Origin: a plasmid
Sequence record: NZ_CP035507.1
Reading direction: 5' to 3' (one strand)
DNA: 64,000 nt
Every line of letters begins with the position of its first letter. The stretch's first letter is position 1. Below, piece after piece: positions 2,411 to 61,469 of the stretch. The notes under the pieces are model-generated. The model saw only the letters and a program-made list of their open reading frames with translations. It did not search any database and had not been told where the DNA came from. The translations under genes were made by a program, and so were the position numbers.

Positions 2411-3634
2411 GTGAATGACATCATGGAGTACACACCGATTTCGCCGTTTATGCGGCCGATCTCGCACGCCCATCTGCGCGTGGTCGAGCGGCCTGAGGTA
2501 TCTGTTCCGGGTAAGCCCATCAACAAGTGGGAACTCCTGCGCGAACTATCCAAGGCGCAAGCGGCCTTTGGGGTCACAGAACGTGATTTGACGGTCATGC
2601 AGGGTCTTCTCAGCTTCTTCCCGGACGATGCGCTTGGCGGGAACGCTGAAATGGTCGTCTTCCCGTCCAACAAGGCGATCTGCGAGCGGCTGAATGGCAT
2701 GCCCTGCTCCACCATGCGCAGGCACATTGCCCGCCTGGTGGACGCTGGCTTGCTCATGCGCCGCGATAGCCCCAACGGGAAGAGGTATGTCCGCAAGCAT
2801 GGCGAAGAGCGCGTGGCTTTCGGCTTCGATCTCTCGCCACTCTACTGCCGGTCCGAAGAGGTGGCACGGGCCGCAGAGGCCGTGCGTGAGGCCGAGGACC
2901 GTGTGCGGCGACTGCGGGAGGTCGTGAGCCTGATGCGGCGCGATCTCGCTGCCCTCGCGGAGTTTGGAGAGGAGATCCAGCCCGGCCTTGGCCTGTGGGA
3001 TCAGTTTCGCGACAAGGCTGTCCTCACAGCGCGCGCCCTGCGCCGCAAGCTCACGCTTGAGGAGCTCTCCGCATATCGGACCGACCTTGAAGCCCTTCTC
3101 GATCGCGCACGCAACGTCATTGATGGCCCTGAAACAGAAGAAATGAACACCAATGATGCCAGTTTTGAGCGCCACCATCATAATTCAAACAAAGAATCTA
3201 TAGATCTTGAACCTGCCTTAGAAAAAGACGGGGCGGCGGCCGCCGCGCCAGATGTTGAAACGGATGCACCTGGTGCTGACGTGGAAGAAGCGGACATAAG
3301 ACGCGTGCCAAAGATCCCGCTCCATCTGGTGATCGCTGGCTGCCCGTCGCTCAAAACCTTTTACCAAGGCGACATCCGCCATTGGCATCAGCTTTTCGAC
3401 GCGGCTTGCCATGTACGGCCCGCCATGGGGATCAGCGCGTCCGCTTGGGAAGAAGCGCAACGGTTCATGGGCCTCGAGCAGGCATCGATCGTTGTCGTCG
3501 CTATGCTGGAACGCTTTGCGGACATCCGGTCGCCCGGTGGCTACCTCCGTGCGCTGACATCCAAGGCAGCGGCGGGCGAGTTCTCCTGTGGGCCGATGGT
3601 CATGGCGCTGATGTCCCGGCGAAATGCTGCATAA
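2411..3634 (+). CDS. repC: RepC replication initiator
   Basis: 407 aa. RepC-family N-terminus (FGVTERDLTVMQGLLSFFPDD). Position is directly after repAB. Confidence 0.85.
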   Translation: MNDIMEYTPISPFMRPISHAHLRVVERPEVSVPGKPINKWELLRELSKAQAAFGVTERDLTVMQGLLSFFPDDALGGNAEMVVFPSNKAICERLNGMPCSTMRRHIARLVDAGLLMRRDSPNGKRYVRKHGEERVAFGFDLSPLYCRSEEVARAAEAVREAEDRVRRLREVVSLMRRDLAALAEFGEEIQPGLGLWDQFRDKAVLTARALRRKLTLEELSAYRTDLEALLDRARNVIDGPETEEMNTNDASFERHHHNSNKESIDLEPALEKDGAAAAAPDVETDAPGADVEEADIRRVPKIPLHLVIAGCPSLKTFYQGDIRHWHQLFDAACHVRPAMGISASAWEEAQRFMGLEQASIVVVAMLERFADIRSPGGYLRALTSKAAAGEFSCGPMVMALMSRRNAA

Positions 3635-3694: not shown

Positions 3695-3803
3695 ACGCGG
3701 CGATGCGTCGGTAGCAGAAGAGAGAAAAAGGTTGGTGGTTGGAGGGGTGACGGGAAGTGAGATCGGGAGAGTGGCTCCTGGCGCCCGTCGCGGAGAAGAT
3801 CTG

Positions 3804-5975
3804 ATGGCGAAAGCAGCCCAGAAAATCACCCTGTCCCCCTCACGGGACATCCCCTTCGACAAGCTGGTGCTGAGCCAGTCCAACGTGCGGGGCATCAAGG
3901 CAGGCGTCTCGGTCGAGGAACTGGCGGAAGACATCGCACGGCGCGGTTTGCTGCAGGGCTTGAACGTCCGGCCCGTGGTCGATGCTGAAGGGGGCGAAAC
4001 CGGCATGTTCGAGATCCCGGCCGGCGGCCGTCGTTTCCAGGCGCTGTCGCTGCTGGTGAAGCAGAAGCGGCTGGCCAAGACCGCGCCGATCCCTTGTATC
4101 GTGCGGGATACGGCGTCGGAGATCCTCGCCGAGGACGACTCGCTGGCGGAGAACATGCAGCGCGTCGCCCTGCACCCGCTGGACCAGTTCCGCGCGTTTC
4201 AGGCCCTGCGCGAAAAGGGTCAGGACGAGGAAGCGATTGCGGCGGCCTTCTTCGTCACGCCGCAGATCGTCAAGCAGCGCCTGAAACTCGCGTCCGTGGC
4301 CCCTGCCCTGCTCGAGGTCTATGCCGAGGATGGCATGACGCTCGAACAACTGATGGCCTTCACCGTGAACCCCGATCATGCGCGTCAGGCGCAGGTCTGG
4401 GAGGCGATCAAGAACTCCTGGAACAAGGAGCCCTATGCCATCCGGCGCATGCTGACCGAGACCTCGGTCCGGGCGTCTGATCGTCGCGCGGTCTTCGTCG
4501 GCGTCGATGCCTATGAGGCGGCGGGCGGTGTCGTGCTACGTGATCTCTTCCAGGGCGACGACGGTGGTTGGCTCGAGAACCCTGCCCTCCTTGACCGGCT
4601 GGTTGCCGAGAAGCTCCAGGCCGAAGCCGAGGCACTGGCCTCCGAGGGCTGGAAGTGGATCGAGGTGGCGACCGACCTGCCCTATGGCTACAGTCACGGT
4701 CTGCGGCGTCTTGCCGGTGATCCCGCGCCGATGACCGACGAGGAAAGCGCGGCCCACGCTTCGCTCCTCGCCGAGTATCGCGGGCTTAAGGAGGAATACT
4801 CCGGCCAAGATGAATATCCCGAGGAGATCGACGCTCGCCTCGGTCAACTCGAGACAGCGATGGAAGCACTCGAACAACGGCCTCTGATCTACGATGATGC
4901 CGAGATCCCGCGCGCGGGCGTCTTCGTCACGCTGGATCGGGATGGCAGCCTTGCGGTCTATCGTGGCTATATCCGGCCCGAGGACGAGCCGCGCGAGGAG
5001 ACCGCGGTCCAGGATGGTGATGGCGCGGATGCCATGGGGCAGGGGGGTGATGTCGGTGTTTCCAACTGGAAATCGTCGGCGACCTCTGCTGGCGGCACCG
5101 TTATTACTTCGGGTGCTCAGTCGAGCGGTGCGGATGCGTCCGATGAGGAAGATGACGGCGCGCTGAAGCCGTTGCCCGAACGGCTGGTCGTGGAATTGAC
5201 CGCCCACCGGACCCTCGCGCTGCGCGAAGCCATCGGTCGGTCGCCCGACGTCGCGCTGACGCTCCTGCTCCTGAAGCTGGTGACGGATACCTTCCGCACC
5301 TCCTCTGCCTCGGGGAGCTGCCTCGAAGCCTCGGTGCGCCATGTCTATATGTCCGTGCAGGCACCCGATCTGAAGGACAGCGTCGTGGCCAAGCTGGTCG
5401 ACGAACGTCACGCGGCCTGGGAAGCCGATCTGCCCCTCGGCGACGATGCTGGGCTCTGGGACTATCTGACAGTGCTCGACCAGGGCAGCCGTCTCGCCCT
5501 GTTGGCGCATTGCCTTAGCTTCGGGATCAATGCACTCCATGAGAAGGTGAACCCCTATGGGGCGGGTATCTCCGCCAGCGGCCTGACCCGTCGCATGGCG
5601 CATGCCGATCTCGTGGCGCGCGCGGTCGATCTCGACATGGTCGAGGCAGGCTGGGAGCCGACGGTAGACGGCTATCTCAACCGCGTGCCCAAGGCCCGAA
5701 TCCTCGAGGCTGTGCGCGAGGCGAAGGGGGAAGGGACCGCGCAGCTTCTCGATCACCTGAAGAAGGGCGAGATGGCCACCGAAGCCGAGCGGCTCCTCAA
5801 GGGCAGCGGCTGGTTGCCCGAGGTCCTGCGTCGCGCTGATCTGGCGGCAGGCGACGGCGAGGAGATCGCAGAAGGGCAGGGGGAGGATGCGGGCGAGCCC
5901 GACGACATCGATCTCCCAGCCTTCCTGACGGCTGATCTGCCGGACACCGTTACGTCGATGATGGCGGCGGAGTGA
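3804..5975 (+). CDS. ParB-like nuclease (ParB/Srx N-terminal domain) large protein, typical of conjugative-element leading regions
   Basis: ParB N-terminal motifs are present (FEIPAGGRRFQALSLL). Start MAKAAQKIT. The product is 724 aa from this start with a long acidic C-terminus. Confidence 0.65.
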   Translation: MAKAAQKITLSPSRDIPFDKLVLSQSNVRGIKAGVSVEELAEDIARRGLLQGLNVRPVVDAEGGETGMFEIPAGGRRFQALSLLVKQKRLAKTAPIPCIVRDTASEILAEDDSLAENMQRVALHPLDQFRAFQALREKGQDEEAIAAAFFVTPQIVKQRLKLASVAPALLEVYAEDGMTLEQLMAFTVNPDHARQAQVWEAIKNSWNKEPYAIRRMLTETSVRASDRRAVFVGVDAYEAAGGVVLRDLFQGDDGGWLENPALLDRLVAEKLQAEAEALASEGWKWIEVATDLPYGYSHGLRRLAGDPAPMTDEESAAHASLLAEYRGLKEEYSGQDEYPEEIDARLGQLETAMEALEQRPLIYDDAEIPRAGVFVTLDRDGSLAVYRGYIRPEDEPREETAVQDGDGADAMGQGGDVGVSNWKSSATSAGGTVITSGAQSSGADASDEEDDGALKPLPERLVVELTAHRTLALREAIGRSPDVALTLLLLKLVTDTFRTSSASGSCLEASVRHVYMSVQAPDLKDSVVAKLVDERHAAWEADLPLGDDAGLWDYLTVLDQGSRLALLAHCLSFGINALHEKVNPYGAGISASGLTRRMAHADLVARAVDLDMVEAGWEPTVDGYLNRVPKARILEAVREAKGEGTAQLLDHLKKGEMATEAERLLKGSGWLPEVLRRADLAAGDGEEIAEGQGEDAGEPDDIDLPAFLTADLPDTVTSMMAAE

Positions 5976-6074: not shown

Positions 6075-6548
6075 ATGTCTGCAACGACCATCATCGACTC
6101 AGCCCCCCTCGGGGCGCTTATCCGCTACACCGACGGCAGTCCCAAGCCGCCGCCACGTTTCACCAAGAAGCTTGCGGCCTGGGAGCGCTCGAACGGCGTC
6201 GGTCGTCTCGTGAAGAAGGAACCGCCCAGGGTCTATCCGACCTGGACCGCTCCGGCCTCCTTCACGCTCCATGAGGGGAATTTCTCCTCGGACGGGGTCA
6301 TTCTCGTCACCATCATGCGCAGTCATTCGGCGGATAGCCGTCTGATCTTCGAGGTGGCCGAGGAACCGAAGCCCGGCCAGGTGCGCGTGCTTCTGGACTT
6401 CGGCGGGAATACCGAACTGCTGCATCTGGCGGAGTCCGTCACCGCAGCGGAGCTCTGGATCGCGCGGGAAGGTTATCGCAACGCGCGGCTTGAAATCGTC
6501 GACACTGAGGACGGCGATAGGGCAGGGGGTGCGGACCTGGCCGCCTGA
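6075..6548 (+). CDS. hypothetical protein
   Basis: 157-aa ORF. Preceded by aggatgagga (SD) and a 7-bp inverted repeat aatgcga-N5-tcgcatt. No recognisable motif. Confidence 0.45.
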   Translation: MSATTIIDSAPLGALIRYTDGSPKPPPRFTKKLAAWERSNGVGRLVKKEPPRVYPTWTAPASFTLHEGNFSSDGVILVTIMRSHSADSRLIFEVAEEPKPGQVRVLLDFGGNTELLHLAESVTAAELWIAREGYRNARLEIVDTEDGDRAGGADLAA

Positions 6549-7095
6549 GCCCTGACACTGCGTGAGGGGCCTGCCCATGGGCGGGCCCCTCACCGACCAC
6601 ATGAACCTCGTCCCGCGATGCCGCGGGGCGCAGAATTATTCATCCCCCAATTCGGAGGTTTTCAACCAAGAGTCTGCCCGGGAGGTTGGCGGCGTTAGAA
6701 ACATCAGCGGGACAATTGGCTCCAGTCGTCAGGGCACCTCCCCCGCTCGCCATACCCTTCCTTGCCCCGAATCATGTCTTCGAGATCAACCCGCATGGGG
6801 TCGGACTACGGGCAAGCCCGTGCCGCCGGATGGATTCGGGCGAGCCGAACGCACCCGGTGATGTCAGCCAGTCTTCGGGCCTGCGGGGTCCTGTCGCGCG
6901 GGGGATGGTCCCCCGCCTCCAAGACAGGAGCCAAACAGATGTCCCGCAAAGATGCACACGCCTTCGCCGCCTCCCTCGCCGCCACGCTTATGGTCTCGAT
7001 CGTCGTCTTCGAGGCAGGGGATGGAACCTTTGGCGCCGTCCCCGCCGATGAAATCGACGGCGACGAGGTTGTGATCGTCTCGGAATACGATCCCT
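6538..7095. repeat. direct repeat R1, copy A (~560 bp, ~90% identical to 22208-22760)
   Basis: Aligned by eye with copy B. It contains a 10-bp-stem hairpin (6562-6593), a CCCGCG-ATGC-CGCGGG hairpin, an almost invariant ~115-nt leader, and a 54-aa ORF. Confidence 0.85.
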
Positions 7096-7103
7096 TCGGG
7101 TGA
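6939..7103 (+). CDS. conserved small protein (54 aa; hydrophobic centre, acidic tail) inside repeat R1-A
   Basis: Strong SD acaggagccaaacag ATG. Differences from its paralog at 22606 are mostly synonymous (gca/gct, gcc/gct, ctc/ctt, ggg/ggc, gga/ggt, ttt/ttc), which indicates purifying selection on the protein. Confidence 0.6.
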   Translation: MSRKDAHAFAASLAATLMVSIVVFEAGDGTFGAVPADEIDGDEVVIVSEYDPFG

Positions 7104-7180
7104 GGCTTCGGCCTCACTTCCCGAGGGCCTGGGAAGGGTAGCGGTGCGCCACATGGCCCACCGTGGCCCGATTGATTTCC

Positions 7181-8014
7181 CTAGAATTGCCGATGGATTG
7201 GGCAGCTTTCATCAGCGGCCCAATCGGCAAAGCTCAGGTAGTAGACGCTGACGCTCGAGCGCCCGGAGACCATGGCCGCAAGGGCGGCAAGTGCGGCGCG
7301 ACCCCCGCCGTTGCAGTGGCTGACGATGGGTTTTCCGCCGTCGAGACCCGTCTCATCCAGCATCCGCGCAATGGTTGCCGCTGGCTTCAGGCGCGTTCCG
7401 TCCAGAAGGTCGGCATGGGAGAGGTTCCGTGCACCAGGCAGGTGTCCGCCTCGGCTATTCCCTTTCAGATCCTCCCCGCGATACTCGGCTTGCGTCCTCG
7501 CGTCGAATATCTGCACCCGGTCGAGTTCGTCCTTCAGCGTATTGCGGTCACGCAATCCGACCGATCCCGAACCCGGAACCAGAACAAGCTGTCCAATGTA
7601 CTCCGGAGCCTGCTGTGGAGACATATCGAGAGCATCCACACCACCGTTCAGCACAGCAGCGGGCAGGCCAAAATATTGCAGCATGAACCAGACGCGCGCC
7701 GCTTCGGTCATGCGGCCGTCGTCTATGACGACTGTCAGAGCGTCAGGCCCCAGTCCGAGCCGGGTGAATGCCTCCAGCCAATATGCGTCGTCATCCAGAC
7801 CCGACCGGCTCTTCAGGGCGTGGCGGACCCAATCGGCAATCGGAACGGTCCTCAGTCCCTCGATCTTTTCGTCTGCTGAGGGTACGTAAAGCAGGCGGAT
7901 CGGGCCGAGACCGGCCAGCTCACTCGCTTCAACCAACGGCCGCTGTTCCATCTGGCTGTGGTCCCCTCCAGTTCTTTCCCAAAAGTCGTCGCCATCATTT
8001 AGGCTTTGCGCCAT
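7181..8014 (-). CDS. thiosulfate sulfurtransferase (tandem rhodanese domains)
   Basis: Active-site CNGGGRAA in the C-terminal rhodanese domain. Two-domain architecture. Start codon uncertain. Confidence 0.7.
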   Translation of the reverse strand: MAQSLNDGDDFWERTGGDHSQMEQRPLVEASELAGLGPIRLLYVPSADEKIEGLRTVPIADWVRHALKSRSGLDDDAYWLEAFTRLGLGPDALTVVIDDGRMTEAARVWFMLQYFGLPAAVLNGGVDALDMSPQQAPEYIGQLVLVPGSGSVGLRDRNTLKDELDRVQIFDARTQAEYRGEDLKGNSRGGHLPGARNLSHADLLDGTRLKPAATIARMLDETGLDGGKPIVSHCNGGGRAALAALAAMVSGRSSVSVYYLSFADWAADESCPIHRQF

Positions 8015-8195
8015 TGGTTTCCAATCGGATCAGCTTCTTGCCCTGCGAACGGAGCTGGCAAGGCTCCGGTTCAAGTGATTGACAATCCGCCACCTTCCCG
8101 CGACAAAAAGGCATGGGGATCCGCGACCTCCCCACGAGGCGTCAGCTGAAGATCGCGTTCCATTCCCGAACGATTACTTCCGAGGAGGAACGCAT

Positions 8196-9029
8196 ATGCC
8201 TGCGCCCGACGCCATGTCTTGTGAACAACTTGCCCGCCTCGTGGGCACACCGAAAGCCCCTACCATCCTCGACGTGCGGCGCGAAGCCGTACGGGCGGGC
8301 GATCCCCGCCTTTTGCCTGGCGCGCGCGCCTTGGCCGAGGCAGACCTGTCGCCCGAGGGACTGGCACGGATTGCCGCCGGGTTCCAAGGCCCCGTGGTCG
8401 TGGTCTGCGCCGAGGGCCACCGTTTGAGCCAAGGCACTGCGGCCTGGCTGAGGCATGAGGGTGTGCATGCCGAGTATCTGCTGGGTGGACAGGCCGCGTG
8501 GACGGCGGCAAATCTTCCGCTCATCGACCCCGGCAAGATCACTGCTCGTGATGCACAGGAGCGGTCAATCTGGGTCACCCGGTCTCGGCCCAAAATCGAC
8601 CGCATCGCCTGTCCATGGCTCATTCGCCGTTTCATCGACCCGCACGCGGTGTTCCTGTTCGTGGCACCCGCCGAGGTGCAGGGCGTAGCCGAACGCTTCG
8701 GCGCCATGCCTTATGACATCGAGGGCGTCTTCTGGAGCCACCGGGACGACCTGTGCACCTTCGATGTGCTGCTGGCCGAGTTTGGCTTGTCGACCCCGGC
8801 GCTGGACCGGCTCGCACTGATCGTGCGGGGCGCAGACACGTCGCGTCCCGATCTTGCACCCGAATGTGCGGGTCTGCTGGCGGCTTCGCTGGGCCTATCG
8901 CGCATGTATTCCGACGACCTCGAACAACTGGAGGCAGGGATCGCACTTTACGACGCCTTCTATCGCTGGGCCCGGGACGCGACCGAAGAACAACACAATT
9001 GGCCGACCAACACAGGCAAACAGAAATGA
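8196..9029 (+). CDS. chrB: chromate resistance protein ChrB-like (rhodanese-like plus ChrB C-terminal domain)
   Basis: Start MPAPD with SD gaggagga. Directly upstream of chrA and translationally coupled to it (ATGA overlap). Confidence 0.6.
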   Translation: MPAPDAMSCEQLARLVGTPKAPTILDVRREAVRAGDPRLLPGARALAEADLSPEGLARIAAGFQGPVVVVCAEGHRLSQGTAAWLRHEGVHAEYLLGGQAAWTAANLPLIDPGKITARDAQERSIWVTRSRPKIDRIACPWLIRRFIDPHAVFLFVAPAEVQGVAERFGAMPYDIEGVFWSHRDDLCTFDVLLAEFGLSTPALDRLALIVRGADTSRPDLAPECAGLLAASLGLSRMYSDDLEQLEAGIALYDAFYRWARDATEEQHNWPTNTGKQK

Positions 9030-14172: not shown

Positions 14173-14490
14173 CTAGATCTCCATTTGGTCGGCCGTCTTG
14201 CTTGATGCCAGCGCGTCTGCGAACCACTGCGGTTTTCGGCCGCGGCCAGACCAAGTGATGTCTGCGTTCTCAGGGTGCCGGTACTTCGCCACGGCTGGCG
14301 CACGGGTGGTTTTCACCTCAACACCGATCAGTTCGGCGAGGGAGTAGCCCATCTCCTTGGCGATGGCTTCCAGCTTGGTGCGGGCTTCGGCCTTGTGACG
14401 GTCCTCATAGGTGGAAATCGCCTTGGCGAGGTCCTTCTGCAATTGCCGCAGTTCCTTGAGCGACATCGCCTCGAGATTGAAATCAGCCAT
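14173..14490 (-). CDS. H-NS-family nucleoid-associated protein (copy 1)
   Basis: C-terminal TWSGRGRKPQW DNA-binding motif. Coiled-coil N-terminus. Its paralog is at 24132-24449. Confidence 0.7.
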   Translation of the reverse strand: MADFNLEAMSLKELRQLQKDLAKAISTYEDRHKAEARTKLEAIAKEMGYSLAELIGVEVKTTRAPAVAKYRHPENADITWSGRGRKPQWFADALASSKTADQMEI

Positions 14491-14762
14491 TTGGCCCTCG
14501 TGTCCAGAATGATGCGTCCGGGATAGCCGTCATGTCGCAACATCGCAAATCCCACGGAGGTCACCGCGATAGGGTAGGGGGGTGAGGTCGGTTTGAGTCG
14601 CAGGGTCGGTGTTTTCGTAAATGCTTTAACCCCGTTGCCGTGGCCAGGAAGGCCAAGTTCTGTGAGAGCCTCAGGTCGCCCCCATCTCCGGTGCCATCCC
14701 TTCGACTGACAATCCCCTAAGCCTGTTCGGCCTCTGGCGCGCAACCCCGCGTCAGTCCGGGC
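14250..14762. repeat. direct repeat R2, copy A (5' ~two-thirds of the hns gene plus ~270-nt leader; near-identical to 24210-24722)
   Basis: Positions 14650-14760 versus 24610-24720 are almost identical. Identity ends inside the hns genes (the C-termini diverge) and at 14762/24722. Confidence 0.8.
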
Positions 14763-18857: not shown

Positions 18858-21224
18858 TCACAACTCGATCCGCCTGAGCCGCAGCGCGTTGGTGATCACC
18901 GAGACGGAGGACAAGCTCATCGCCGCCGCTGCGATCATGGGCGACAGCAACATCCCAGTGAGGGGGTAAAGCAGCCCGGCCGCGACCGGCACCCCGAGCG
19001 TGTTGTAGGCGAAGGCAAAGAACAGGTTCTGCTTGATGTTGCGCAGGGTGGCGCGGGCGAGCTTGCGGGCCCGGACGATGCCCATGAGGTCGCCACCCAG
19101 CAGGGTAATCCCGGCGCTTTCCATCGCCACATCCGCGCCGGTGCCCATGGCGATGCCGACATCGGCGGCGGCCAGCGCGGGCGCGTCGTTCACCCCGTCG
19201 CCCGCCATGGCGATCTTGTGGCCATCGCGGCGCAACTGCTCAATCAGGTCCTTCTTGCCCTCGGGCAGGATGCCCGCGCGCACCTCGTCGATGCCGAGCT
19301 TGCCCGCCACCGCCTGCGCCGTGCGCTCGTTGTCGCCCGTCGCCATGAGCACCCGCAGCCCCTGGGCATGAAGTTCCCTGATGGCCTGGGCGGTGGAGTC
19401 CTTGATCGGGTCGGCTACCGCCACAATCCCGGCAAGCGCGCCATCGACCGCGACGAACATCGCCGTCTTCCCCTCGGCCCGCAGCGTGTCCGCCTTCACC
19501 TCGGCCGCACCCGTGTCCAGCCCCATCTCCCGCATCATCGCGGAATTGCCGAGCGCCACCGAGCGTCCGCCGACCTTACCGCGCACGCCCTTGCCGGTGA
19601 CCGCCTCGAAGTCGGCTGCATCCTGACGCGACGCACCCTGCGCCTCGGCGCCCTCGACGATCGCCTCGGCGAGCGGGTGTTCCGAACCGCGTTCCAGCGC
19701 GGTGGCCAACGACAGCAGCTCTGTCTGCGGCAGGTCCGCAAGCACCACGGTATCCGTCAGCTTCGGCTTGCCCATGGTCAGCGTGCCGGTCTTGTCCACG
19801 ATCAGGGTATCGGCGCCCGCCATGCGCTCCAGAGCCTCAGCGTCCTTGATCAACACACCCGCCTGTGCCCCGCGCCCGGCCGCCGTTGTGATCGAGATCG
19901 GCGTCGCCAGTCCCAGCGCGCAGGGACAGGCGATGATGAGGACCGACACGGCCGAGGCGATGGCGAAGACCAGCGCGGGTTCCGGGCCCACGGTCAGCCA
20001 GACGACGAAGGCGACGATGGCGATGACCACCACGGTTGGCACGAACACCGCCGACACGCGGTCGGCCATGCCCTGGATCGGCGCGCGCGACCGGCGCGCG
20101 TTCGCCACCATCGCCACGATCTGTGCGAGCACAGTGTCGGACCCGACCTTGCCCGCCTCGATCACGAGAGAGCCGTTCTTGTTGATCGTGGCCCCGGTCA
20201 CCGCATCGCCCGGGCCTTTCTCGACCGGCATCGACTCGCCGGTCAGCATGCTCTCGTCCAGTGCCGATCGCCCCTCTATTACCGTCCCGTCGACCGGGAC
20301 CGCATCGCCGGGGCGGACGCGCAGCCTGTCGCCTGCCATGATGTTTTCCAGCGGCGCGTCGTATTCGGTACCGTCCGGCAAGATGCGCCGCGCGGTCTTG
20401 GGCGCGAGGTCCAGAAGGGCGCGGATCGCGTCGCCGGTTCGTTCTCGCGCGCGCAGCTCTAGCACCTGGCCCACGAAGACCAGCGCCACGATCACCACTG
20501 CCGCCTCGTAGTAGGTGCCGACCCCGTGGCCCATCCGGTAGGCGTCCGGGAACACGCCGGGCAGGAAGGTCGCGACCAGCGAATAGAGATACGCCGCGCC
20601 CACCCCGAGGCTGATCAGCGTCCACATGTTGGGCGACCTGTTCACAACCGACTCCCAGCCGCGCCGGAAGAACGGCAGCGCCGCCCAGAGGATGATCGGC
20701 GTCGCCAGCACGAACTCGAGATAGCTGGCCGTCTGGTGGCCGACCCAGTCACGCACCGGCAGCGCCACCAGCTCGCCCATCGTCAGAATGATGAGCGGCA
20801 CCGCCGCGGCGGCCGAGATCCACATCCGCCGCGTGAAGTCTGTCAGTTCCTCGCTCGGCTCGTCCGAGGGGACCATCGGCTCCAGCGCCATGCCGCAGAT
20901 CGGGCAGGCTCCCGGCGCATCTCGGACGATCTCCGGATGCATCGGGCAGGTGTACTGGACGTTAACCGGGGCGGCCTTCTTGCGGCCAGCGGCGCGGCCC
21001 GAGGCGTAGAACCACGGATCGGCCCTGAACTTCGTCTGGCACTTGCCCGAGCAGAAATGGAAGTCCTTGCCGCCGAAGTTCTCGGTCCGAATGTCCGGCT
21101 TCAGGGTCACCGTCATGCCGCAGACGGGGTCGATGTCCGTCGGGCCGGTTGCAGGCGCATCGTGTTGCGTCGGCATTTCGTCGTCGGTGCGGACGTGGCT
21201 TGCGTGGGGATCGACGGTGGACAT
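18858..21224 (-). CDS. copA: Cu+-translocating P1B-type ATPase CopA
   Basis: Start MSTVD with SD gaaaggagaacgtc. Motifs CPC ([13 protein letters not shown]), [18 protein letters not shown]-terminal YHS/TRASH (VCGM...HFCSGKC) and CPMHP...CPICGM metal-binding modules. Confidence 0.9.
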
Positions 21225-21284
21225 GACGTTCTCCTTTCGCGGACCGTGCCGCGCGAAGGCCAAGGCATGGCCTTCGATGCCAAT

Positions 21285-21316: not shown

Positions 21317-21425
21317 AGATGAGACCTGACCCCGAGCATTGCGCGACGAAGCTGATGGGCTATCGTCTGATGGCCCCGCTATCGTAACGCATACGCACGA
21401 TTGCGGCTCGGAAAGGTTTTCTCTG

Positions 21426-22127
21426 ATGAGTCGTCTGTCGCATTCAGAAATCCACATGGTGCATCGCATCGGCTGGTTGCGGGCTGCCGTTCTCGGGGCG
21501 AATGACGGCCTCGTCTCAACTGCGAGCCTGGTCGTAGGGGTCGCCGCGGCCGGATCTGGTCGTCCCGAAATCCTGATCGCCGGACTTGCCGGCCTCGTCG
21601 CCGGAGCGATGTCGATGGCTGCCGGCGAATACGTCTCTGTCAGTTCGCAGACCGATGCGGAACAGGCCGACATCGCCCGCGAGACGCGCGAGCTGAAGAA
21701 TACGCCCAAGGCCGAGCTCGACGAGCTCACACGTATCTATGTCGGGCGCGGGCTTGACGAAGGTCTCGCACGGCAGGTCGCGCTTCAGCTGACCGAGAAG
21801 GACGCGCTTGGCGCCCATTCGCGTGACGAGTTGGGCATCTCGGAAACTGTGACTGCGCATCCGATCCAGGCCGCCCTCGTTTCGGCGGCAACCTTCGCCG
21901 TCGGCGCGGTCGTTCCCCTTATCATCTCGGCCCTCGTGCCTGCCGCTCAGATAACTCTCATCGTCGCGGTCACTACTTTGATCGCGCTGTCGGTGCTGGG
22001 CGGGCTCGGTGCCTCAGCCGGCGGTGCGGGGATCGTCAAGGGAGCCGTCCGCGTCACCTTCTGGGGCGCGCTCGCCATGGCAGCGACAGCAGCAGTCGGT
22101 ATGCTCTTCGGCGTGACGGTCGGGTAG
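21426..22127 (+). CDS. VIT1/CCC1-family (vacuolar iron transporter-like) Fe/Mn transporter
   Basis: Start MSRLSH. VIT motif GANDGLVSTASLVVGV. Five TM helices. Confidence 0.65.
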   Translation: MSRLSHSEIHMVHRIGWLRAAVLGANDGLVSTASLVVGVAAAGSGRPEILIAGLAGLVAGAMSMAAGEYVSVSSQTDAEQADIARETRELKNTPKAELDELTRIYVGRGLDEGLARQVALQLTEKDALGAHSRDELGISETVTAHPIQAALVSAATFAVGAVVPLIISALVPAAQITLIVAVTTLIALSVLGGLGASAGGAGIVKGAVRVTFWGALAMAATAAVGMLFGVTVG

Positions 22128-22207
22128 AGGATGTCGTGAGAAGAACTGTCGGCCTTGATGATGCGCTCTTGCACCGCATCCGGTTCCTAATGCCAGGGGC
22201 GCAGACA

Positions 22208-22760
22208 TGGCCGCCTGAGCCCTGACAAGGCGTGAGAGGCCTGCCAACCGGCGGGCCTCTCACCTACCACACCCTCGTCCCGCGATGCCGCGGGGCACCA
22301 AGGATCCATCCCCCAAGACGGAGGTATTCAACCAAGAGCCTGCCCAGGAGGCTGGCGGCGTTCGAAGCATCAGCCGGACAACCGGCTCCAGTCTTCAGGG
22401 CACCATCCCCCGCTCGCCATTCCCTTCCTTGCCCCGAATCCCGCCTTCGAGATCAACCCGCGAGGGGTCGGACTACGGGCAAGCCCGTGCCGCCGGGTGG
22501 ATTCGGGCGAGCCGAACGCACCCGGTGATGTCAGCCAGTCTTCGGGCCTGCGGGGTCCTGTCGCGCGGGGGATGGTCCCCCGCCTCCAAGACAGGAGCCA
22601 AACAGATGTCCCGCAAAGATGCTTACGCTTTCGCCGCCTCCCTTGCCGCCACGCTCATGGTCTCGATCGTCGTCTTCCAGGCAGGCGATGGTACCTTCGG
22701 CGCCGTCCCCGCTGATGAAATCGACGGCGACGAGGTTCAAGTGATCGCTGAGGTCGACCC
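22208..22760. repeat. direct repeat R1, copy B
   Basis: Same architecture as R1-A. The hairpin at 22232-22263 carries a compensatory G-C to A-T pair change. Confidence 0.85.
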
Positions 22761-22770
22761 GTGGGCATAA
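22606..22770 (+). CDS. conserved small protein, paralog of 6939..7103 (R1-B)
   Basis: Same SD and leader. 54 aa. Mostly synonymous differences from copy A. Confidence 0.6.
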   Translation: MSRKDAYAFAASLAATLMVSIVVFQAGDGTFGAVPADEIDGDEVQVIAEVDPWA

Positions 22771-22917
22771 GGCCCACGGTTTGTCCCGAGAGCTCGGCAT
22801 CGGGGCAGGGTCCCCGATCCGGTCCGTTCGGCTTTCAGACCTCTCGGTGGCCCGGAAATCTGAGCCGACGCGGAGGTCGGCACGACTGCCCAAGGAGCCG
22901 AACGCCCGGTGTCGAGT

Positions 22918-24012
22918 TTACGGTCCGCCCGAAACTTCGAGGAAGAGTTTCACCAGGGCGACGTTGATGAAGTAGTTGTGCTTTCCAGAGCGATGCTTTT
23001 CGACAAAGCCCTGCTCAGCCAAAGTATCGAGATACTTCGCGGCCGTCTGCCGACTGACATCCAGATCGTTTTGCAGATATTCGATCCGGGTGTAGGGATG
23101 GCGAAACAAGTTGTTCAGAAGTTCCTGGCTGTAAATCTTCGGCAAGTCTTCACGTAGCCGATGCTTCACGTCCGCCATTTGCTGTCGGATGCCGGTGACG
23201 ATCTCGACTGTTGTGGCAGAAGTCTCTGCAACGGCCTCCAGCATGTAGATGACCCAGGGTTCCCAATCGCCCGTGTCGCGCACCGCCTGAAGGTGCCTGT
23301 AGTAGTCCGCTTTGTTACGGGTGATGAACCGCGACAGGTAGAGCACCGGGATGTCGAGCAACCCCGTTCTGGTCAGATAAAGTACGTTGAGGATGCGCCC
23401 GATACGTCCGTTCCCATCCGGAAACGGGTGGATGCTTTCGAACTGATGATGGATCAAAGCCATCTTGATGAGCGGATCGAGATCGCTGAGTTCATCGTCG
23501 TTGATGAACCGTTCGAGCGCTGTCATGTGGCGGACAATTTCATGCGCATCCTGGGGGGGAACGAAGACGATCTCCCCTGTTTGCTCGTTCTTGAGCGCGG
23601 TGCCCGGTGTCACGCGAAATCCGTCACTGCGGCCCTTCAGCAAGCGGAACATGTCGATGAGCGCCGAATTCGGGATGAGGCCGCCGGTTTCGCCCAAACG
23701 TGCGTATCCAAGACGCAAGGCGTCGCGATACAGCGCTACTTCTTTGGCCGCCGGGGACTGCGGATCGTCAGGGAAAACATCCGCCTGAAACAGTTCATCC
23801 TGCGTAGTGACGATGTTTTCGACTTCCGACGAAGCTTTGGCTTCCTGAAGAGCCAGCGTGTCGATCAGGATGCCTTGGTTCGGAATGGTCTTGGCCTGAC
23901 CCTTCAGATCCGCAAGCGCGCGGCTGGCGCGAGCGAGCGCCTTCAGGACCGGAACGGTTTCGATCTCGGCCGGGGGTGGCAGGGCGGGAATGGCGTAGGT
24001 CGGCTTTAACAT
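22918..24012 (-). CDS. Fic-family protein (AMPylase/Doc fold) with C-terminal wHTH
   Basis: Fic motif HPFPDGNGRIGR. 364 aa. Confidence 0.85.
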   Translation of the reverse strand: MLKPTYAIPALPPPAEIETVPVLKALARASRALADLKGQAKTIPNQGILIDTLALQEAKASSEVENIVTTQDELFQADVFPDDPQSPAAKEVALYRDALRLGYARLGETGGLIPNSALIDMFRLLKGRSDGFRVTPGTALKNEQTGEIVFVPPQDAHEIVRHMTALERFINDDELSDLDPLIKMALIHHQFESIHPFPDGNGRIGRILNVLYLTRTGLLDIPVLYLSRFITRNKADYYRHLQAVRDTGDWEPWVIYMLEAVAETSATTVEIVTGIRQQMADVKHRLREDLPKIYSQELLNNLFRHPYTRIEYLQNDLDVSRQTAAKYLDTLAEQGFVEKHRSGKHNYFINVALVKLFLEVSGGP

Positions 24013-24131: not shown

Positions 24132-24449
24132 TCAGACCGCCAGAGCGCTCGGGTCCTTGCCGGCGTTGATGTGGTCTGCTAACCACTGCGGTTTCCGGGC
24201 TCGGCCAGACCAGGTGATGCCTGCGTTCTCAGGGTGACGGTATTTCGCCACGGCTGGTGCACGGGTCTTCTTCACCTCAATACCGATCAGTTCGGCAAGG
24301 GAGTAGCCCATCTCCTTGGCGACGGCTTCCAGCTTGGTGCGGGCTTCGGCCTTGTGACGGTCCTCATAGGTGGAAATCGCTTTGGCGAGGTCCTTCTGCA
24401 ATTGCCGCAGTTCCTTGAGCGACATCGCTTCGAGATTGAAATCAGCCAT
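24132..24449 (-). CDS. H-NS-family nucleoid-associated protein (copy 2)
   Basis: TWSGRARKPQW motif. The N-terminal 60 aa are almost identical to copy 1. Confidence 0.7.
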   Translation of the reverse strand: MADFNLEAMSLKELRQLQKDLAKAISTYEDRHKAEARTKLEAVAKEMGYSLAELIGIEVKKTRAPAVAKYRHPENAGITWSGRARKPQWLADHINAGKDPSALAV

Positions 24450-24722
24450 TGGGCCCTCGTGTCCTGAATGATGCGTCCGGGATAGCCGTCAGGTTGCAGC
24501 ATCGCAACTCCCGTGGAGGTCACCGCAATAGGGCAGGGGGATGAGGTTGGCTTGAGTCGCCGGGTCGATGCTCTCGAAAGGGCTTCAACCCCGTTACCTT
24601 GGCCAGGAAGGTCGAGTTCTGCGAGAGCCCCAGGTCGCCCCTATCCCCGGTGCCATCCCTTCGACTGACAATCCCCTAAGCCTGTTCGGCCTCTGGCGCG
24701 CAACCCCGCGTCAGTCCGGGCC
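24210..24722. repeat. direct repeat R2, copy B
   Basis: See R2 copy A (14250-14762). Confidence 0.8.
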
Positions 24723-24871
24723 GTGTTGCCCTTTCAGGGCTGCCCGCTCCACCCCGGCCCTCTGGAGGTTTCCGGTCGACGTTCCTTCTCCCGTGCACGC
24801 CTCAGCCGACAGGCTTTTTCCGGGTCTTGTCGAAGGGACGGTCCCAGGGACAGGAAAAACAGGAGCTTACC

Positions 24872-25276
24872 ATGCAGAACATCGTCATCCTCGCCGGCAA
24901 CATCGGTCAGAAGCCCGAAGTGCGCTCGACCCAAAGCGGCACGAAGATCACCAACTTCACCCTGGCCACCTCGCGGCCGCGCCTCTCGGAAGGTCGCGTG
25001 ATGCGCGACGAGAACGGCTACCGGGTCATGGACACCGAATGGCACCGCATCACCTGCTTCAACGGTCTCGGCAAGACCGTCGCAGAACACTGCGAAAAGG
25101 GCATGAAGGTCCTCGTCCACGGGCGCATCCACTACACCAAGTGGACCGACGCAACGGGCACTGACCGCTATGGCTGCGAGATCATCGCCGAGAAGGTCGA
25201 CTTCCTGAGCCGCCCGAAGTCGGCCGAGAACGAAAACCCCGAGCTGGTCGATCGAGACGACGAGATTCCGTTCTGA
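24872..25276 (+). CDS. ssb: single-stranded DNA-binding protein
   Basis: OB-fold N-terminus (MQNIVILAGNIGQKPEVR). Acidic C-terminal tail DDEIPF. SD caggag. Confidence 0.85.
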   Translation: MQNIVILAGNIGQKPEVRSTQSGTKITNFTLATSRPRLSEGRVMRDENGYRVMDTEWHRITCFNGLGKTVAEHCEKGMKVLVHGRIHYTKWTDATGTDRYGCEIIAEKVDFLSRPKSAENENPELVDRDDEIPF

Positions 25277-27711: not shown

Positions 27712-27987
27712 TCTACCTAAGACCCAAACCGCCCACTCAACTTCATTTTTCGTCCAATTGGCTTCGAAAGTCTATGATTACGCACCGCCGATGGGCAGTT
27801 GCGACGAAAGCATCTAGTGGCACACAGTGTGAAGGTTGGCGCCGGACAGCAAGCGCAGGAGTTTTCCATTTTGGCCATGAAACAAACGTTTGCGTCCTGC
27901 GTCTGAGAGTCCGAGTTTGACCGGTTTCCCGGTGACGGGTTGATGGTTGGGAGAGTGGCTCCCGGCGCCCGTCGCGGGAGATAACCG

Positions 27988-29187
27988 ATGGGCGTTGTGG
28001 AAGTTCTGGATCCGGTCGCACCGGCGCGGGCGGGTGGCTGGAAGGTTGATGTGAGTCGGGGTGAGCGGAACGGGCGGGTGTCGTCCGAATGGTTCAACCG
28101 GCCCGATGACGAGCGGTATCTGTCGCTCGACGATCTCTGGGCATCTGTGAAGGGCCGGTCCGAGCGCAGCCGCAGCCGGGTGGTGCAGACGGCGGATATC
28201 CGGGTCGAGGCCGCGGGCGACAACCCCGAGCGGTTGCACCTGATGTTGCCGAAGGCGCAAGAACCGGTCGCGCCCACACATTGGGCCTTTGGCCAGCTTG
28301 CCAGCATCGTCGGCGCGCCGGCCTCCTACCTGCGGCAGCTGCCTGCGCCGCTGGCCGGGATCAACCTGCAGTATGGCCTGACCAATCACCGTGCCGAGCA
28401 GGTGAAGACCTTCGAGACCGAAGACGGCCGCACCGAACTGCGCGCCGTGACCGGCCCCGACTATGGCCGCATCCATGACCACGAGTTGGTCGAGGCGGTG
28501 CAGCGCATCGCGGGCAATGGCACCGGCGATACGCGCTGGAAGGTGCCGGGTGTGCTCGACTGGTCGACCGGGGTCTACAACCCCGATGTCGAGATCAGCC
28601 GCGACACAACCACCCTCTATGCCTCGGACCGCGATGTCTTCCTGTTTCTGGTCGACGACCACAACCCGATCGAGGCGGGCCGCCTGCCCGACGGCTCCCC
28701 CGATCTCTACTTCCGGGGCTTCTACTGCTGGAACTCCGAGGTTGGTGCGAAGACGCTCGGCATGGCGAGCTTCTACCTCCGTGCCGTGTGCCACAACCGC
28801 AACCTCTGGGGCGTCGAGGATTTCCAGGAGATCAAGATTCGCCACTCGAAATACGCCGCTTCGCGCTTCGCCCACGAAGCGTCACCGGCGCTGACGCGCT
28901 TTGCCAATTCATCGCCGCAAGGCTTCGTGAATGGCATCAAGGCGGCGCGGCAGCAGATCGTCGCGCGGACGGATGAGGACAGGGATGACTTCCTGCGCAA
29001 GCGGGGCTTCTCGAAAGCCGAAGCCGGCAAGATCATCGAGAAGGTGCTGATGGAAGAGGGCCGCCCGCCCGAGAGCATCTTCGACTTCGTGCAGGGCATC
29101 ACGCGGCTTGCGCGTGATAAGACCCAGCAGGATGCGCGGCTCGACATGGAAGGGCGCGCCAAGAAGCTCCTCGACCGGGTTGGCTGA
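27988..29187 (+). CDS. DUF932-family protein (conjugative-element leading-region protein)
   Basis: 399 aa. Motifs are reminiscent of DUF932 (YFRGFYCWNSEVGAKTLGMASFYLRAVCHNRNLWG). It shares a conserved ~45-nt leader with the ParB-like gene. Confidence 0.45.
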   Translation: MGVVEVLDPVAPARAGGWKVDVSRGERNGRVSSEWFNRPDDERYLSLDDLWASVKGRSERSRSRVVQTADIRVEAAGDNPERLHLMLPKAQEPVAPTHWAFGQLASIVGAPASYLRQLPAPLAGINLQYGLTNHRAEQVKTFETEDGRTELRAVTGPDYGRIHDHELVEAVQRIAGNGTGDTRWKVPGVLDWSTGVYNPDVEISRDTTTLYASDRDVFLFLVDDHNPIEAGRLPDGSPDLYFRGFYCWNSEVGAKTLGMASFYLRAVCHNRNLWGVEDFQEIKIRHSKYAASRFAHEASPALTRFANSSPQGFVNGIKAARQQIVARTDEDRDDFLRKRGFSKAEAGKIIEKVLMEEGRPPESIFDFVQGITRLARDKTQQDARLDMEGRAKKLLDRVG

Positions 29188-60368: not shown

Positions 60369-61469
60369 TCAAACCATGAGCCAATACCGCGTATGGCGCC
60401 GCTCCCCGGTACGGCTAAGCGCGCCCATCTCCACCAGGTCCTGCAGGTCCCGCGTTGTGGTGGCGCGTGACGTGCCGGTTATGGCGATGTAGTTCTCGGC
60501 GCTGAGGCCGCCTTTGAACCCGTCGGGCCCCTCGCGGAACATGCGCTCAATCACCTTGGCTTGTCGCTCGTTCAGTCGATCACGGAACTGGTCGTAGAAC
60601 TTCGCCTTGGCGATGAAGAACGCGACCCGTGTCAGCGTTACCTGCTGCGCCTTCAGAACGATCTCGGCGAACCAGATCAGCCAGCCGGTTACGTCCAGCG
60701 TCTTCTGGTGGGTTTCGAGCTGGTCGTAGTAGGCTTTCCGGTCCCGTTCGATCGTATAGGCCAGCGCGATTAGGCTCGGCTGGCCGATGTTCTGCGCAAG
60801 GGACTTTTCCGCCAAGGCGCGGCCGAGGCGACCATTGCCGTCCTCGAAGGGATGGATGCTTTCGAACCAGAGGTGCCCAAGCGCCGCGCGGGTTAGTGCT
60901 GGCAGGGGCGTTGTGCCGTCTGGCGCCGTTCGGTTGAACCAGTCGACGAACACGTCCATCTCGCCCTGGACCTGCGCGGAGGGCGGCGCCTCGAAATGCA
61001 CCGTCGGCCGGTCGATGCGACCGGAGACGATCTGCATCGCGTCGGCATGTCGCCGGTAGGCCCCGATGGTTTCGAGCCCGCGGTCATGTGCCAGGAGCAT
61101 CCCGTGCCATCGGCTGAGGGTCTCGTGGGTCAGAGGCGCGCCGTAGGTCGAGTAGACGTCGACCATCATCTCTGCGACGCCCTGTTCCTTGGGCTTCGAT
61201 GGCGCACCGTCAGTGATCAGACCGAATTGCCGCCGGAGGGAGGATTGCACACTGCCCCTGTCTAGCACCTCGCCTTCGATGGCGCTTGTCCGCATCGCCT
61301 CTTCACTCAGAAGTTCGATGCGCAGGCGGTCGCGTTCATTGCCGGTCACATGGCGGACGGCGCCGAGAATCTCGCCGGATGACAGTAGGAACCGCCGCTC
61401 GAGAGGTTCGATGGCAGCGCTGTCATAGACGAAATTCGGCCAGTCGGGTTGATTCCAGTTCCAGCGCAT
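60369..61469 (-). CDS. Fic-family protein with N-terminal DUF4172-like domain
   Basis: Fic motif HPFEDGNGRLGR. N-terminus MRWNWNQPDWPNF. Confidence 0.8.
   Translation of the reverse strand: MRWNWNQPDWPNFVYDSAAIEPLERRFLLSSGEILGAVRHVTGNERDRLRIELLSEEAMRTSAIEGEVLDRGSVQSSLRRQFGLITDGAPSKPKEQGVAEMMVDVYSTYGAPLTHETLSRWHGMLLAHDRGLETIGAYRRHADAMQIVSGRIDRPTVHFEAPPSAQVQGEMDVFVDWFNRTAPDGTTPLPALTRAALGHLWFESIHPFEDGNGRLGRALAEKSLAQNIGQPSLIALAYTIERDRKAYYDQLETHQKTLDVTGWLIWFAEIVLKAQQVTLTRVAFFIAKAKFYDQFRDRLNERQAKVIERMFREGPDGFKGGLSAENYIAITGTSRATTTRDLQDLVEMGALSRTGERRHTRYWLMV

Follow-up and report, generated by a model that had tools for sequence, protein, structure and literature searches.

In enterobacterial plasmids, the establishment regions are controlled by special devices, among them single-strand promoters and hok-type killers, and the hok, flm and pnd loci of these plasmids occupy positions similar to that of the element described here. 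We know of nothing comparable described for the large pool of repABC and type IV secretion plasmids and integrative elements of Alphaproteobacteria, which spread genes for metal resistance, catabolism and symbiosis among marine and soil bacteria. In this work, a 64,000-nt stretch of a Rhodobacterales repABC conjugative plasmid (NZ_CP035507.1; the whole stretch is hereafter called the window) was analyzed with respect to a module that it carries in two copies, both on the plus strand. Family-wide, the unit consists of a leader of approximately 250 nt, an open reading frame (ORF) of 54–55 codons and a 3' hairpin that holds the stop codon. As judged from structural modeling and comparison of homologs, each copy is probably a default-off translational lock on a mini-gene of the establishment region, organized as a heavily folded, self-contained small mRNA unit.

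The ORF (6939–7103 in copy A, MSRKDAHAFAASLAATLMVSIVVFEAGDGTFGAVPADEIDGDEVVIVSEYDPFG; 22606–22770 in copy B) is clearly a real gene under purifying selection, as the original prediction had claimed, since among the 70 window-type homologs used for all variability figures the variability at codon positions 1, 2 and 3 was 0.007, 0.004 and 0.093, respectively. The leader is non-coding, and its constraint at the nucleotide level is stronger than that at synonymous sites: the mean variability was 0.025 in the leader core (6735–6938), 0.128 in the 5' leader (6549–6734) and 0.205 at the third positions of the gene for a 157-aa protein located directly upstream. In both copies an open frame precedes the ATG (113 aa from position 6762 and 161 aa from position 22285), which might suggest that the leader is an unannotated coding region or an N-terminal extension of the ORF, but at 67% G+C open frames arise by chance, and we consider the probability of such coding practically negligible. 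The copies differ by a 1-nt indel that shifts the frame, the indels between copies and between clades are not multiples of three, 36 of 82 homologous leaders contain an in-frame stop within 150 nt upstream of the ATG, and the variability of the leader core by position (0.036, 0.027 and 0.010) shows no peak at the wobble position.

The fold of the leader was derived from single-sequence pair probabilities averaged over 122 sequences and from a covariance model, to which 82 leaders were realigned. Plain RNAalifold applied to MAFFT alignments gave fragmentary and unstable structures, in mutual information with average-product correction the clade signal prevailed, and both approaches were replaced. 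The covariance-model alignment speaks for a long stem with a four-way junction at its top. The predicted stem opens with the 5' arm of helix P0 (CAUCAGCGGGACAAUUGGCUCCAGUC, 6702–6727; 22370–22395 in copy B), which is complementary to the Shine-Dalgarno (SD) sequence, the AUG and codons 2–6, and with the 5' arm of helix P1, an upstream C-run, CC(A)UCCCCCGC (6737–6746; 22403–22413), which pairs with a G-run. The inner domain (6766–6879; 22433–22546) comprises helix Ha (CCCGAA, 6766–6771, with UUCGGG, 6874–6879), an irregular stem and, above it, helix Hb (AUCA, 6785–6788, with UGAU, 6858–6861), closing the four-way junction, whose three hairpins are ACCC-loop-GGGU, CGG...ACGGG-CAAG-CCCGU...CCG and CCGGAU...UUCGG-GCGAG-CCGAA...ACCCGG. 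It is followed by a local platform (6890–6928; 22557–22595), in which helix B1 (CCUGUC, 6890–6895, with GACAGG, 6923–6928) encloses helix B2 (GCGGGGGA, 6898–6905, with UCCCCCGC, 6909–6916), the G-run being common to P1 and B2. The translation-initiation region (6923–6954; 22590–22621), with AGGAG at 6926–6930, the AUG at 6939–6941 and codons 2–6, is the 3' partner of P0.

In the 82 realigned leaders, 91–92% of the cells assigned to helices were paired, compared with 85–87% in shuffles and 33–47% in slid controls, 21 pairs were changed on both sides (13.1 in shuffles, with 0 of 500 as high, and 8–10 in slid controls), and the covariation score was 0.144–0.151 (0.07 and 0.027–0.055, respectively). 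All six pairs of helix Ha changed on both sides, and covariation was also found in the helices CGG/CCG, ACG../..CGU, CCGGGU/ACCCGG and UUCGG/CCGAA, of which CCGGGU/ACCCGG was just 72% paired, one clade having two mid-helix mismatches. The P1 cells were 97.7% paired with the G-run GCGGGGGAUGG (6898–6908), with single-side variation in 7 of 11 pairs. The junction-proximal stems are invariant and thus uninformative for or against pairing, the covariation of two pairs flanking GGCUCC/GGAGCC was not clean in the window-type clade, and a helix P2 (ACCC/GGGU) was dropped, as no consistent alignment of it across the clades was obtained. A cis-acting RNA structure in a long 5' leader, for which the original prediction had proposed covariation analysis as a check, fits this covariation, the nucleotide constraint, and the wobble-only variation and RNA-type tetraloops presented below. 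The second check named there, an Rfam scan, gave no family at gathering threshold for the module: the only match of Rfam 15 in the window was chrB-a at 8110–8198, and the region 6400–7300 searched at E ≤ 10 gave only chance miRNA or ROSE_3 matches far below threshold. Literature searches found no description of the leader sequence or of its motif. It is a genuine case of a widespread and strongly constrained structured leader that matches no Rfam family and no description found in the literature.

Two 5' hairpins that were previously stressed turned out to be specific to one clade and to lie just past the upstream gene, while the family-wide element begins near position 6690. Hairpin 1 (14 bp, GUGAGGGGCCUGCC-CAUG-GGCGGGCCCCUCAC, 6562–6593; 22232–22263 in copy B) begins 14 nt downstream of the 157-aa gene's stop codon, and hairpin 2 (CCCGCG-AUGC-CGCGGG, 6612–6627; 22279–22294) is the same in both copies. 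The compensatory change reported for hairpin 1 was found again, the variable pair being G-C in copy A and A-U in copy B, with G·U as the commonest state among the 70 homologs.

The P0 arm is complementary to the whole of 6923–6954, i.e., to GACAGGAGCCAA, the AUG and codons 2–6 up to GAUG. In the window-type clade this duplex has a mean energy of −39 kcal/mol and a z-score of −5.3 relative to shuffled arms, with the SD sequence and the AUG paired in 43 of 43 sequences; the z-scores were −4.7 and −4.3 in two other Rhodobacterales-type clades, and the upstream-arm duplex reached a mean z-score of −4.35 over 118 sequences. The upstream arm varies by clade, yet it fits the spacer and codons of its own clade: in the Paracoccus type, the arm GCAUCUGC pairs with GCAGAUGC, and in the Nitrobacter homolog (L090) a C in the arm faces the G that replaces A in GACGGGAG. 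The G-run may pair either with the upstream C-run (P1) or with the downstream UCCCCCGC (B2), and GACAGG can join CCUGUC (B1). The closed form is the minimum-free-energy fold (−121.2 kcal/mol in copy A and −128.3 kcal/mol in copy B), whereas the best folds with B1 and B2 enforced had −110.4 and −115.9 kcal/mol, respectively. In the full leader, GGAG is unpaired with a probability of approximately 0; when the upstream arm was removed, the AUG opened (0.6–0.99) and the SD sequence mostly stayed paired in B1. Since the SD sequence is paired in every low-energy fold, translation of the ORF would be off by default. An mRNA made inert by long-range pairing that hides the ribosome-binding site, a characteristic of hok-type messages, was thus found here by prediction and in the form of clade-wise complementary arms.

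In the proposed model, a long closing helix would be formed by the far-upstream arm with the SD sequence, the AUG and codons 2–6 (P0) and by the C-run with the invariant G-run (P1), and it would enclose the irregular stem with its four-way junction cap, while the G-run and the GACAGG of the SD region could instead build local hairpins, B2 inside B1. The product of the ORF would be made only once the upstream arm was removed or occupied and B1 was opened, the candidate openers being 5' processing, a trans-acting RNA or protein, a ligand of the junction, or a time window of transcription. We infer that the RNA is made as one unit and that it switches. A further step, which we put forward tentatively and consider unlikely, would be to see in the module the alphaproteobacterial equivalent of entry-triggered or post-segregational switches: the full-length transcript of the established plasmid would be locked, and only fresh transconjugants or plasmid-free segregants would translate a shorter or processed transcript devoid of the upstream arm. 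Such an unlocked transcript could start on the incoming single strand or be cut within the P0/P1 duplex of about 45 bp. If this were true, the modules would constitute a new family of RNA-gated establishment or killer genes, spread over hundreds of plasmids and integrative elements, and the ssb leader (described below) would use a related platform.

The strand on which the structure acts was approached through the kind of changes that it tolerates. The 3' arm of B2 (the downstream C-run) shows C-to-U changes only, in 37 of 158 sequences and at 4 positions; such changes keep G·U on the plus strand and would give A·C on the minus strand, which points to plus-strand RNA. Across B1 and B2 there were 24 G·U cells versus 6 A·C cells, and the states of the variable pair of hairpin 1 are G-C, G·U (the majority) and A-U. 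GNRA and UUCG loops stabilize RNA, not DNA. Of 144 distinct 3' ends, 143 enclose the stop codon in a stable hairpin, and the loops of these hairpins include GAAA (39), UUCG (20) and GCAA (6), 45% altogether; in copy A the stop codon is the UGA within GUGAGGC-UUCG-GCCUCAC (7100–7117, plus strand) and in copy B a UAA in the loop (22760–22778, plus strand). The UUCG argument in favor of RNA over single-stranded DNA was previously used for the STAXI motif (PMC2864571). Wobble-only changes together with GNRA and UUCG loops point to plus-strand RNA, and we conclude, on these sequence grounds, that the platform and the flanking hairpins are likely to act as such, a second role of the inner domain on the other strand being possible. 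Two other approaches to the strand were discarded. Raw folding energy is misleading, as the G-rich minus strand always folds better by composition, and the count of G·U versus A·C over all helices is uninformative for the inner domain, where each strand of Ha has one wobble and one mismatch.

Several observations weigh against the translational lock on a plus-strand RNA. The P0 duplex is weak in the sphingomonad-type clade (z-score of −1.0), P1 is less clean than B2 (18 wobble versus 19 unpaired cells), and no predicted fold frees the SD sequence, so that the "on" state is hypothetical. The excess over the shuffles is inflated by the relatedness of the sequences, the alignment of the 82 leaders was fitted to a model containing B1 and B2, and 120 sequences were retrieved by means of a 22-nt pattern in which parts of both helices are fixed. 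The folding z-scores show no preference for the plus strand (−3.3, compared with −3.9 for the minus strand), and in the inner domain G·U and A·C cells balance each other (146 versus 113 overall). Finally, neither a promoter nor a canonical terminator was found on either strand of 6400–7250 and 22080–22930, the promoter scan, which looked for sigma-70 −35/−10 hexamers, being weak for Alphaproteobacteria. Manual reading revealed no AT-rich −10 element in either arm, and hairpins 1 and 2 and the 3' hairpin gave 0 terminator-like sites, as their stems are followed by only 2–3 U. A sigma-54-like TGGC-N-GC motif near 6685 was rejected, because its spacing varies from 9 to 11 nt among the homologs.

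The protein encoded by the ORF follows the pattern A.A.SLA.TLM..IVVFQAGDG...P..E.DGD....E.DP(W/F) and belongs to no Pfam, NCBIfam or PADLOC family. AlphaFold, run with 80 homologs, predicted one helix (residues 3–26; predicted local distance difference test (pLDDT) of 82–89) and a low-confidence tail (mean pLDDT of 70), and the model had no fold match in PDB. It was originally described as a membrane-type protein, which is unproven: there is one hydrophobic helix, with a Kyte-Doolittle 19-residue maximum of 1.3–2.1 (1.3–1.6 in distant homologs, compared with 2.52 for Hok), which is borderline for a transmembrane segment, but its hydrophobic stretch spans 17 residues, a mid-helix Glu or Pro occurs in about 10% of the homologs, and the net charge is −7 to −10 (+4 for Hok). 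Both a small membrane protein and a small acidic soluble factor are possible from the sequence, and small acidic soluble factors are common among anti-restriction proteins. It is also worth mentioning that the profile of the small protein (residues ~20–53) matched 6–20 tandem stretches in large surface proteins with Ig/PKD repeats (P0161, P0178, P0198, P0216 and P0251), which also have weak DUF1292 matches; this is probably an acidic low-complexity similarity.

The features of the protein and of its message bear upon the explanation that the module is a hok-like type I toxin-antitoxin system or a related killer mRNA, with the ORF encoding a membrane-active toxin, whose folded, inert mRNA would be a stable toxin message controlled by an antisense or trans-acting RNA or by slow processing and would thus serve plasmid maintenance. 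The near-equal size (54 aa versus 52 aa of Hok), the N-terminal hydrophobic helix (residues 3–26 in the AlphaFold model at the pLDDT given above, with a Kyte-Doolittle maximum of about 2.0), the long-range pairing that occludes the SD sequence and the AUG, the conservation at the nucleotide level, the apparently stand-alone unit with its own 3' hairpin, and the vicinity of replication and partition genes and of ssb are all compatible with it. We nevertheless regard this explanation as unlikely, because the protein matches neither Hok/Gef nor any other family in Pfam, it is strongly acidic (net charge of −7 to −10, as opposed to +4) with a conserved acidic C-terminal half, and its hydrophobic stretch of only 17 residues is interrupted by Glu or Pro in about one-tenth of the homologs and is weaker in the distant ones (1.3–1.6). 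Moreover, there is no conserved overlapping upstream ORF of the mok type, no antisense promoter was found (by a scan that is weak for Alphaproteobacteria), and in the loci read the ORF is co-stranded with its ParB, ArdC, toprim and helicase neighbors, an order that an addiction module does not need. Regulation of another kind would be expected if the four-way junction were an aptamer for a small molecule or an ion and the competition of P1 and B2 its expression platform. A conserved aptamer-type domain with covarying helices was indeed found: the stems next to the junction do not vary and the peripheral helices covary, the G-run can pair with either of two strands, and the aptamer-like domain is situated between the closing helix and the SD sequence. 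A riboswitch is nonetheless highly improbable, given that the gene encodes a tiny protein of mobile elements with no metabolic link, the SD sequence is paired in both alternative folds, the junction is nearly devoid of unpaired conserved joining nucleotides, and Rfam gave no match.

The remaining alternative places the function in DNA, i.e., in a single-stranded element of the transferred strand, an Frpo-like promoter or a priming site, so that the minus strand, on entering the recipient, would fold and thereby drive either early expression or synthesis of the complementary strand. Judging from synteny with Martelella pMM259, mobC, relaxase and coupling-protein genes would lie just past the right end of the window, and thus the minus strand is likely to be the transferred one and the template for the ORF, for ssb and for the genes of the methylase and helicases; in other plasmids, genes of the leading region are expressed from single-strand promoters, with the same logic of orientation (PMC11541004). 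The minus strand folds equally well (z-score of −3.9), and a conserved folded leader with a related motif also precedes ssb. However, −35/−10 hexamers were found on neither strand of either copy, and a blastn search (word size 11, E ≤ 0.01) of 5,426 complete Escherichia coli genomes with their F-like plasmids gave no match, the known Frpo sequences not being compared singly in that search. In addition, variation near the SD sequence appears as G·U on the plus and as A·C on the minus strand, the UUCG and GNRA loops stabilize RNA rather than DNA, the structure takes in the SD sequence, the AUG and the first codons, and the module lies some 41–57 kb from the inferred oriT, which is located outside the window. 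Taken together, these points make a single-stranded DNA element quite improbable, and a default-off lock on translation of the small ORF is the reading that we prefer.

The module was found by megablast in 82 plasmid records, mainly of Rhodobacterales, and its upstream 157-aa gene at 437 loci among contigs of one genome per species. The leader core was detected at about 72% identity in plasmids of Paracoccus, Ketogulonicigenium, Novosphingobium, Sphingobium (pCHQ1), Methylocystis and Nitrobacter, and a 22-nt core pattern in at least 120 stretches of metagenome contigs, nearly all of which, where the flank sufficed, carry the small ORF. A word-indexed search for the small protein gave 313 homologs, a profile search 217 clusters at 50% identity, and tblastn 84 plasmid records, in which every named genus belongs to Alphaproteobacteria. 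Throughout the 82 plasmids and 437 genome loci the order is repABC, ParB-like gene, 157-aa gene, leader and small ORF, and the relatives continue from the module through (Fic) and H-NS to ssb, with variable cargo after the module, such as heavy-metal genes in Haematobacter pOT1-5 and a DUF262 gene in Martelella. The module is kept in this order while the cargo after it varies, which indicates that it belongs to the backbone and not to the cargo. Distant versions, from Rhodobacterales, Sphingomonadales and Hyphomicrobiales, are found in the context ArdC, DUF2958, ParB or strawberry-notch, toprim, DUF2493 ... DUF736, and in distant plasmids the leader core always directly precedes an ORF of 54–58 codons. 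The gene upstream of the leader differs by clade and is non-homologous between clades, so the conserved unit is the leader with the ORF. The module, therefore, belongs to that part of the backbone of conjugative plasmids and integrative elements of Alphaproteobacteria which is concerned with establishment and anti-restriction.

Several relatives have interrupted loci. TetR-like and membrane-protein genes are inserted after hairpin 1 in L081 (3457–5096) and L014 (3457–5100), with a flanking duplication of about 100 nt, an IS110-family element lies in the end of the 157-aa gene in L060 (3457–4848), an insertion of about 1.4 kb is found within the small ORF in L082 (3922–5308), and a deletion of about 160 nt affects the inner domain in L031 (1852–1855). 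The insertions between the 157-aa gene and the leader are ordinary accretion.

The two copies in the window are direct repeats, with homology from about 6526 to 7072 and from about 22196 to 22739, a spacing of 15,667–15,670 nt and an overall identity of 87–90%, in agreement with the roughly 90% given in the original prediction. Copy A (6526–7117) contains the tail of the 157-aa gene, the leader, the ORF and the 3' hairpin; copy B (22196–22778) has the same arrangement, with only the last ~23 nt of that gene. Identity amounts to 87% in the last 23 nt of the upstream gene (6526–6548), 83% in the 5' leader (6549–6734), 96% in the 3' leader (6735–6938), 90% in codons 1–45 of the ORF and 50% in its last ten codons, and falls to 31–37% in the flanks on both sides. 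The real left edge is thus placed at about 6526 and 22196, within the final 23 nt of the 157-aa gene, rather than where it had been drawn. The predicted right end at 7105 also has to be moved, since, as the divergence of the last ten codons indicates, nucleotide homology stops near 7072 and 22739. An identical run upstream of the ATG does exist, but in place of about 115 nt it covers 108 nt before the ATG and the first 17 nt of the ORF (6831–6955, 125 nt, the longest identical run in the pairwise alignment), and of the two hairpins said to lie inside it only GGGGGA-TGG-TCCCCC (6900–6914) does so, CCCGCG-ATGC-CGCGGG (6612–6627) being about 310 nt upstream of the ATG. In the same way, the statement that the ORF differs mainly at synonymous sites holds for codons 1–44 (8 synonymous and 2 non-synonymous differences) but not for the last 10 codons, where 7 differences are non-synonymous.

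The window starts with repA (101–1294), repB (1227–2210), repC (2411–3634) and a gene for a ParB-like protein of 747 aa (3732–5975), followed by the 157-aa gene (6075–6548), which directly precedes module copy A; its product has no family and no solved relative and is not homologous to that of the upstream gene in the distant clade. Copy A is followed by a rhodanese gene (7181–8014, minus strand), chrB, chromate-transporter and major facilitator superfamily transporter genes, and the first H-NS gene (14173–14490, minus strand). A chrB-a RNA (RF03078, 8110–8198, plus strand; 62 bits against a threshold of 43.9 in Rfam) is situated at the start of the ChrB-domain ORF (8079–9029) of this chromate-resistance cargo. 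Copper-type cargo (DUF411, cytochrome c, a P-type ATPase at 18858–21263 and a VIT protein at 21339–22127) directly precedes copy B, behind which are a Fic gene (22918–24012, minus strand), the second H-NS gene (24132–24449, minus strand) and ssb (start at 24873). In its remaining part, the window runs collinear with Martelella pMM259 (methylase/helicase, toprim, DUF2493, further helicases, UvrD, Fic and ParA); in pMM259, this part is directly followed by mobC, the relaxase and the coupling protein.

The pattern of the window is thus module, chromate cargo and H-NS, then copper cargo, and then module, Fic, H-NS and ssb. The predicted position of the module at the left edge of each cargo slot is true of the window, but neither here nor in the insertions of the relatives was there any sign of a site-specific role in cargo capture. 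The H-NS-family genes form a repeat of their own (14215–14514 and 24174–24473, 94% identical), and two H-NS genes together with two modules indicate that two backbone segments of related plasmids have been joined in the window. As these segments are about 10% diverged, the two modules look like alleles of two diverged plasmid lineages merged by recombination, and not like a recent duplication, with cargo that accumulated behind the module. Two copies of the 157-aa gene with the module were also found at 34–41 kb and 185–191 kb of plasmid p1 of Tabrizicola sp. M-4 (NZ_CP128607.1; L005 and L017), so the doubling of the backbone segment is not unique to the window. Two other repeats were noted: a 43-nt stretch, GGGAGAGUGGCUCC.GGCGCCCGUCGCGG...AUGG, at 3765–3807 and 27949–27991 (84% identical), which precedes the starts of the ParB-like gene and of a 399-aa ORF (27988–29187) and may be another shared leader or ribosome-binding region, and a common 49-nt segment (23395–23443 and 60819–60867, 76% identity) of the Fic-family genes at 22918–24012 and 60369–61469, both on the minus strand.

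A second leader, of about 180 nt, precedes ssb (24690–24872; 10200–10391 in L002) and is conserved in 23 fetched relatives. It ends with CUUGUCG-AAGGGAC-GG-UCCC-AGG-GACAGGA, followed by AAAAACAGGAGC and the ATG, and this layout (YUGUC ... small G/C hairpin ... GACAGGA) matches the platform of the small-ORF leader. A CGACAGG further upstream is a possible competitor for CUUGUCG, and the covariance model gave a weak score of 21.9 bits on the Martelella ssb leader.

The leader is among the most constrained non-coding stretches of these elements, and the protein that it precedes is specific to mobile elements. It is also a defined RNA that lends itself to experiment: its helices are clear, compensatory mutants can be predicted, and two natural alleles occur on the same replicon. 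If the lock opened on transfer or plasmid loss, it would show the timing of early genes of these plasmids.

Compared with the described systems, the module shares with the hok/sok family (hok of R1, flm/srnB of F, and pnd) a plasmid gene of about 50 codons, a long, nucleotide-conserved and covarying mRNA fold, a ribosome-binding site hidden by long-range pairing with an inert primary transcript (predicted here), and a location near plasmid maintenance and leading-region genes. It differs from this family in having no sequence or Pfam relation to it, a strongly acidic instead of basic product, no mok-like overlapping frame or antisense gene found, a closing helix built from the 5' arm and the start region and not from the 5' and 3' ends, and alphaproteobacterial hosts. 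The Frpo and ssi elements of F-like and IncI leading regions are likewise conserved, folded, non-coding stretches of a few hundred nucleotides directly before establishment genes templated by the transferred strand, with a second element before ssb; unlike them, the module lacks −35, −10 and UP elements and sequence similarity, is very G+C-rich, shows the wobble pairs and loops of plus-strand RNA, and includes the SD sequence, the AUG and the first codons. The STAXI and radC RNA motifs (RF01754 for radC; Weinberg et al. 2010, PMC2864571) are also structured, lie by ssb, anti-restriction, ParB and integrase genes on mobile elements, and raise the same question of RNA versus single-stranded DNA with the same UUCG argument, but no Rfam model scores on the module, which forms a four-way junction with a long closing helix in place of tandem pseudoknots and is tied to one particular small ORF. 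With leaders that sequester the ribosome-binding site, including riboswitch platforms, it has in common an anti-SD strand, mutually exclusive helices on one strand and a sensor-like upstream domain, whereas both of its folds keep the SD sequence paired and its context is a mini-gene of mobile elements. In its predicted logic, the leader thus resembles those that occlude the ribosome-binding site, hok-type mRNAs alike, while in the comparisons made it stands outside hok, Frpo and the Rfam families.

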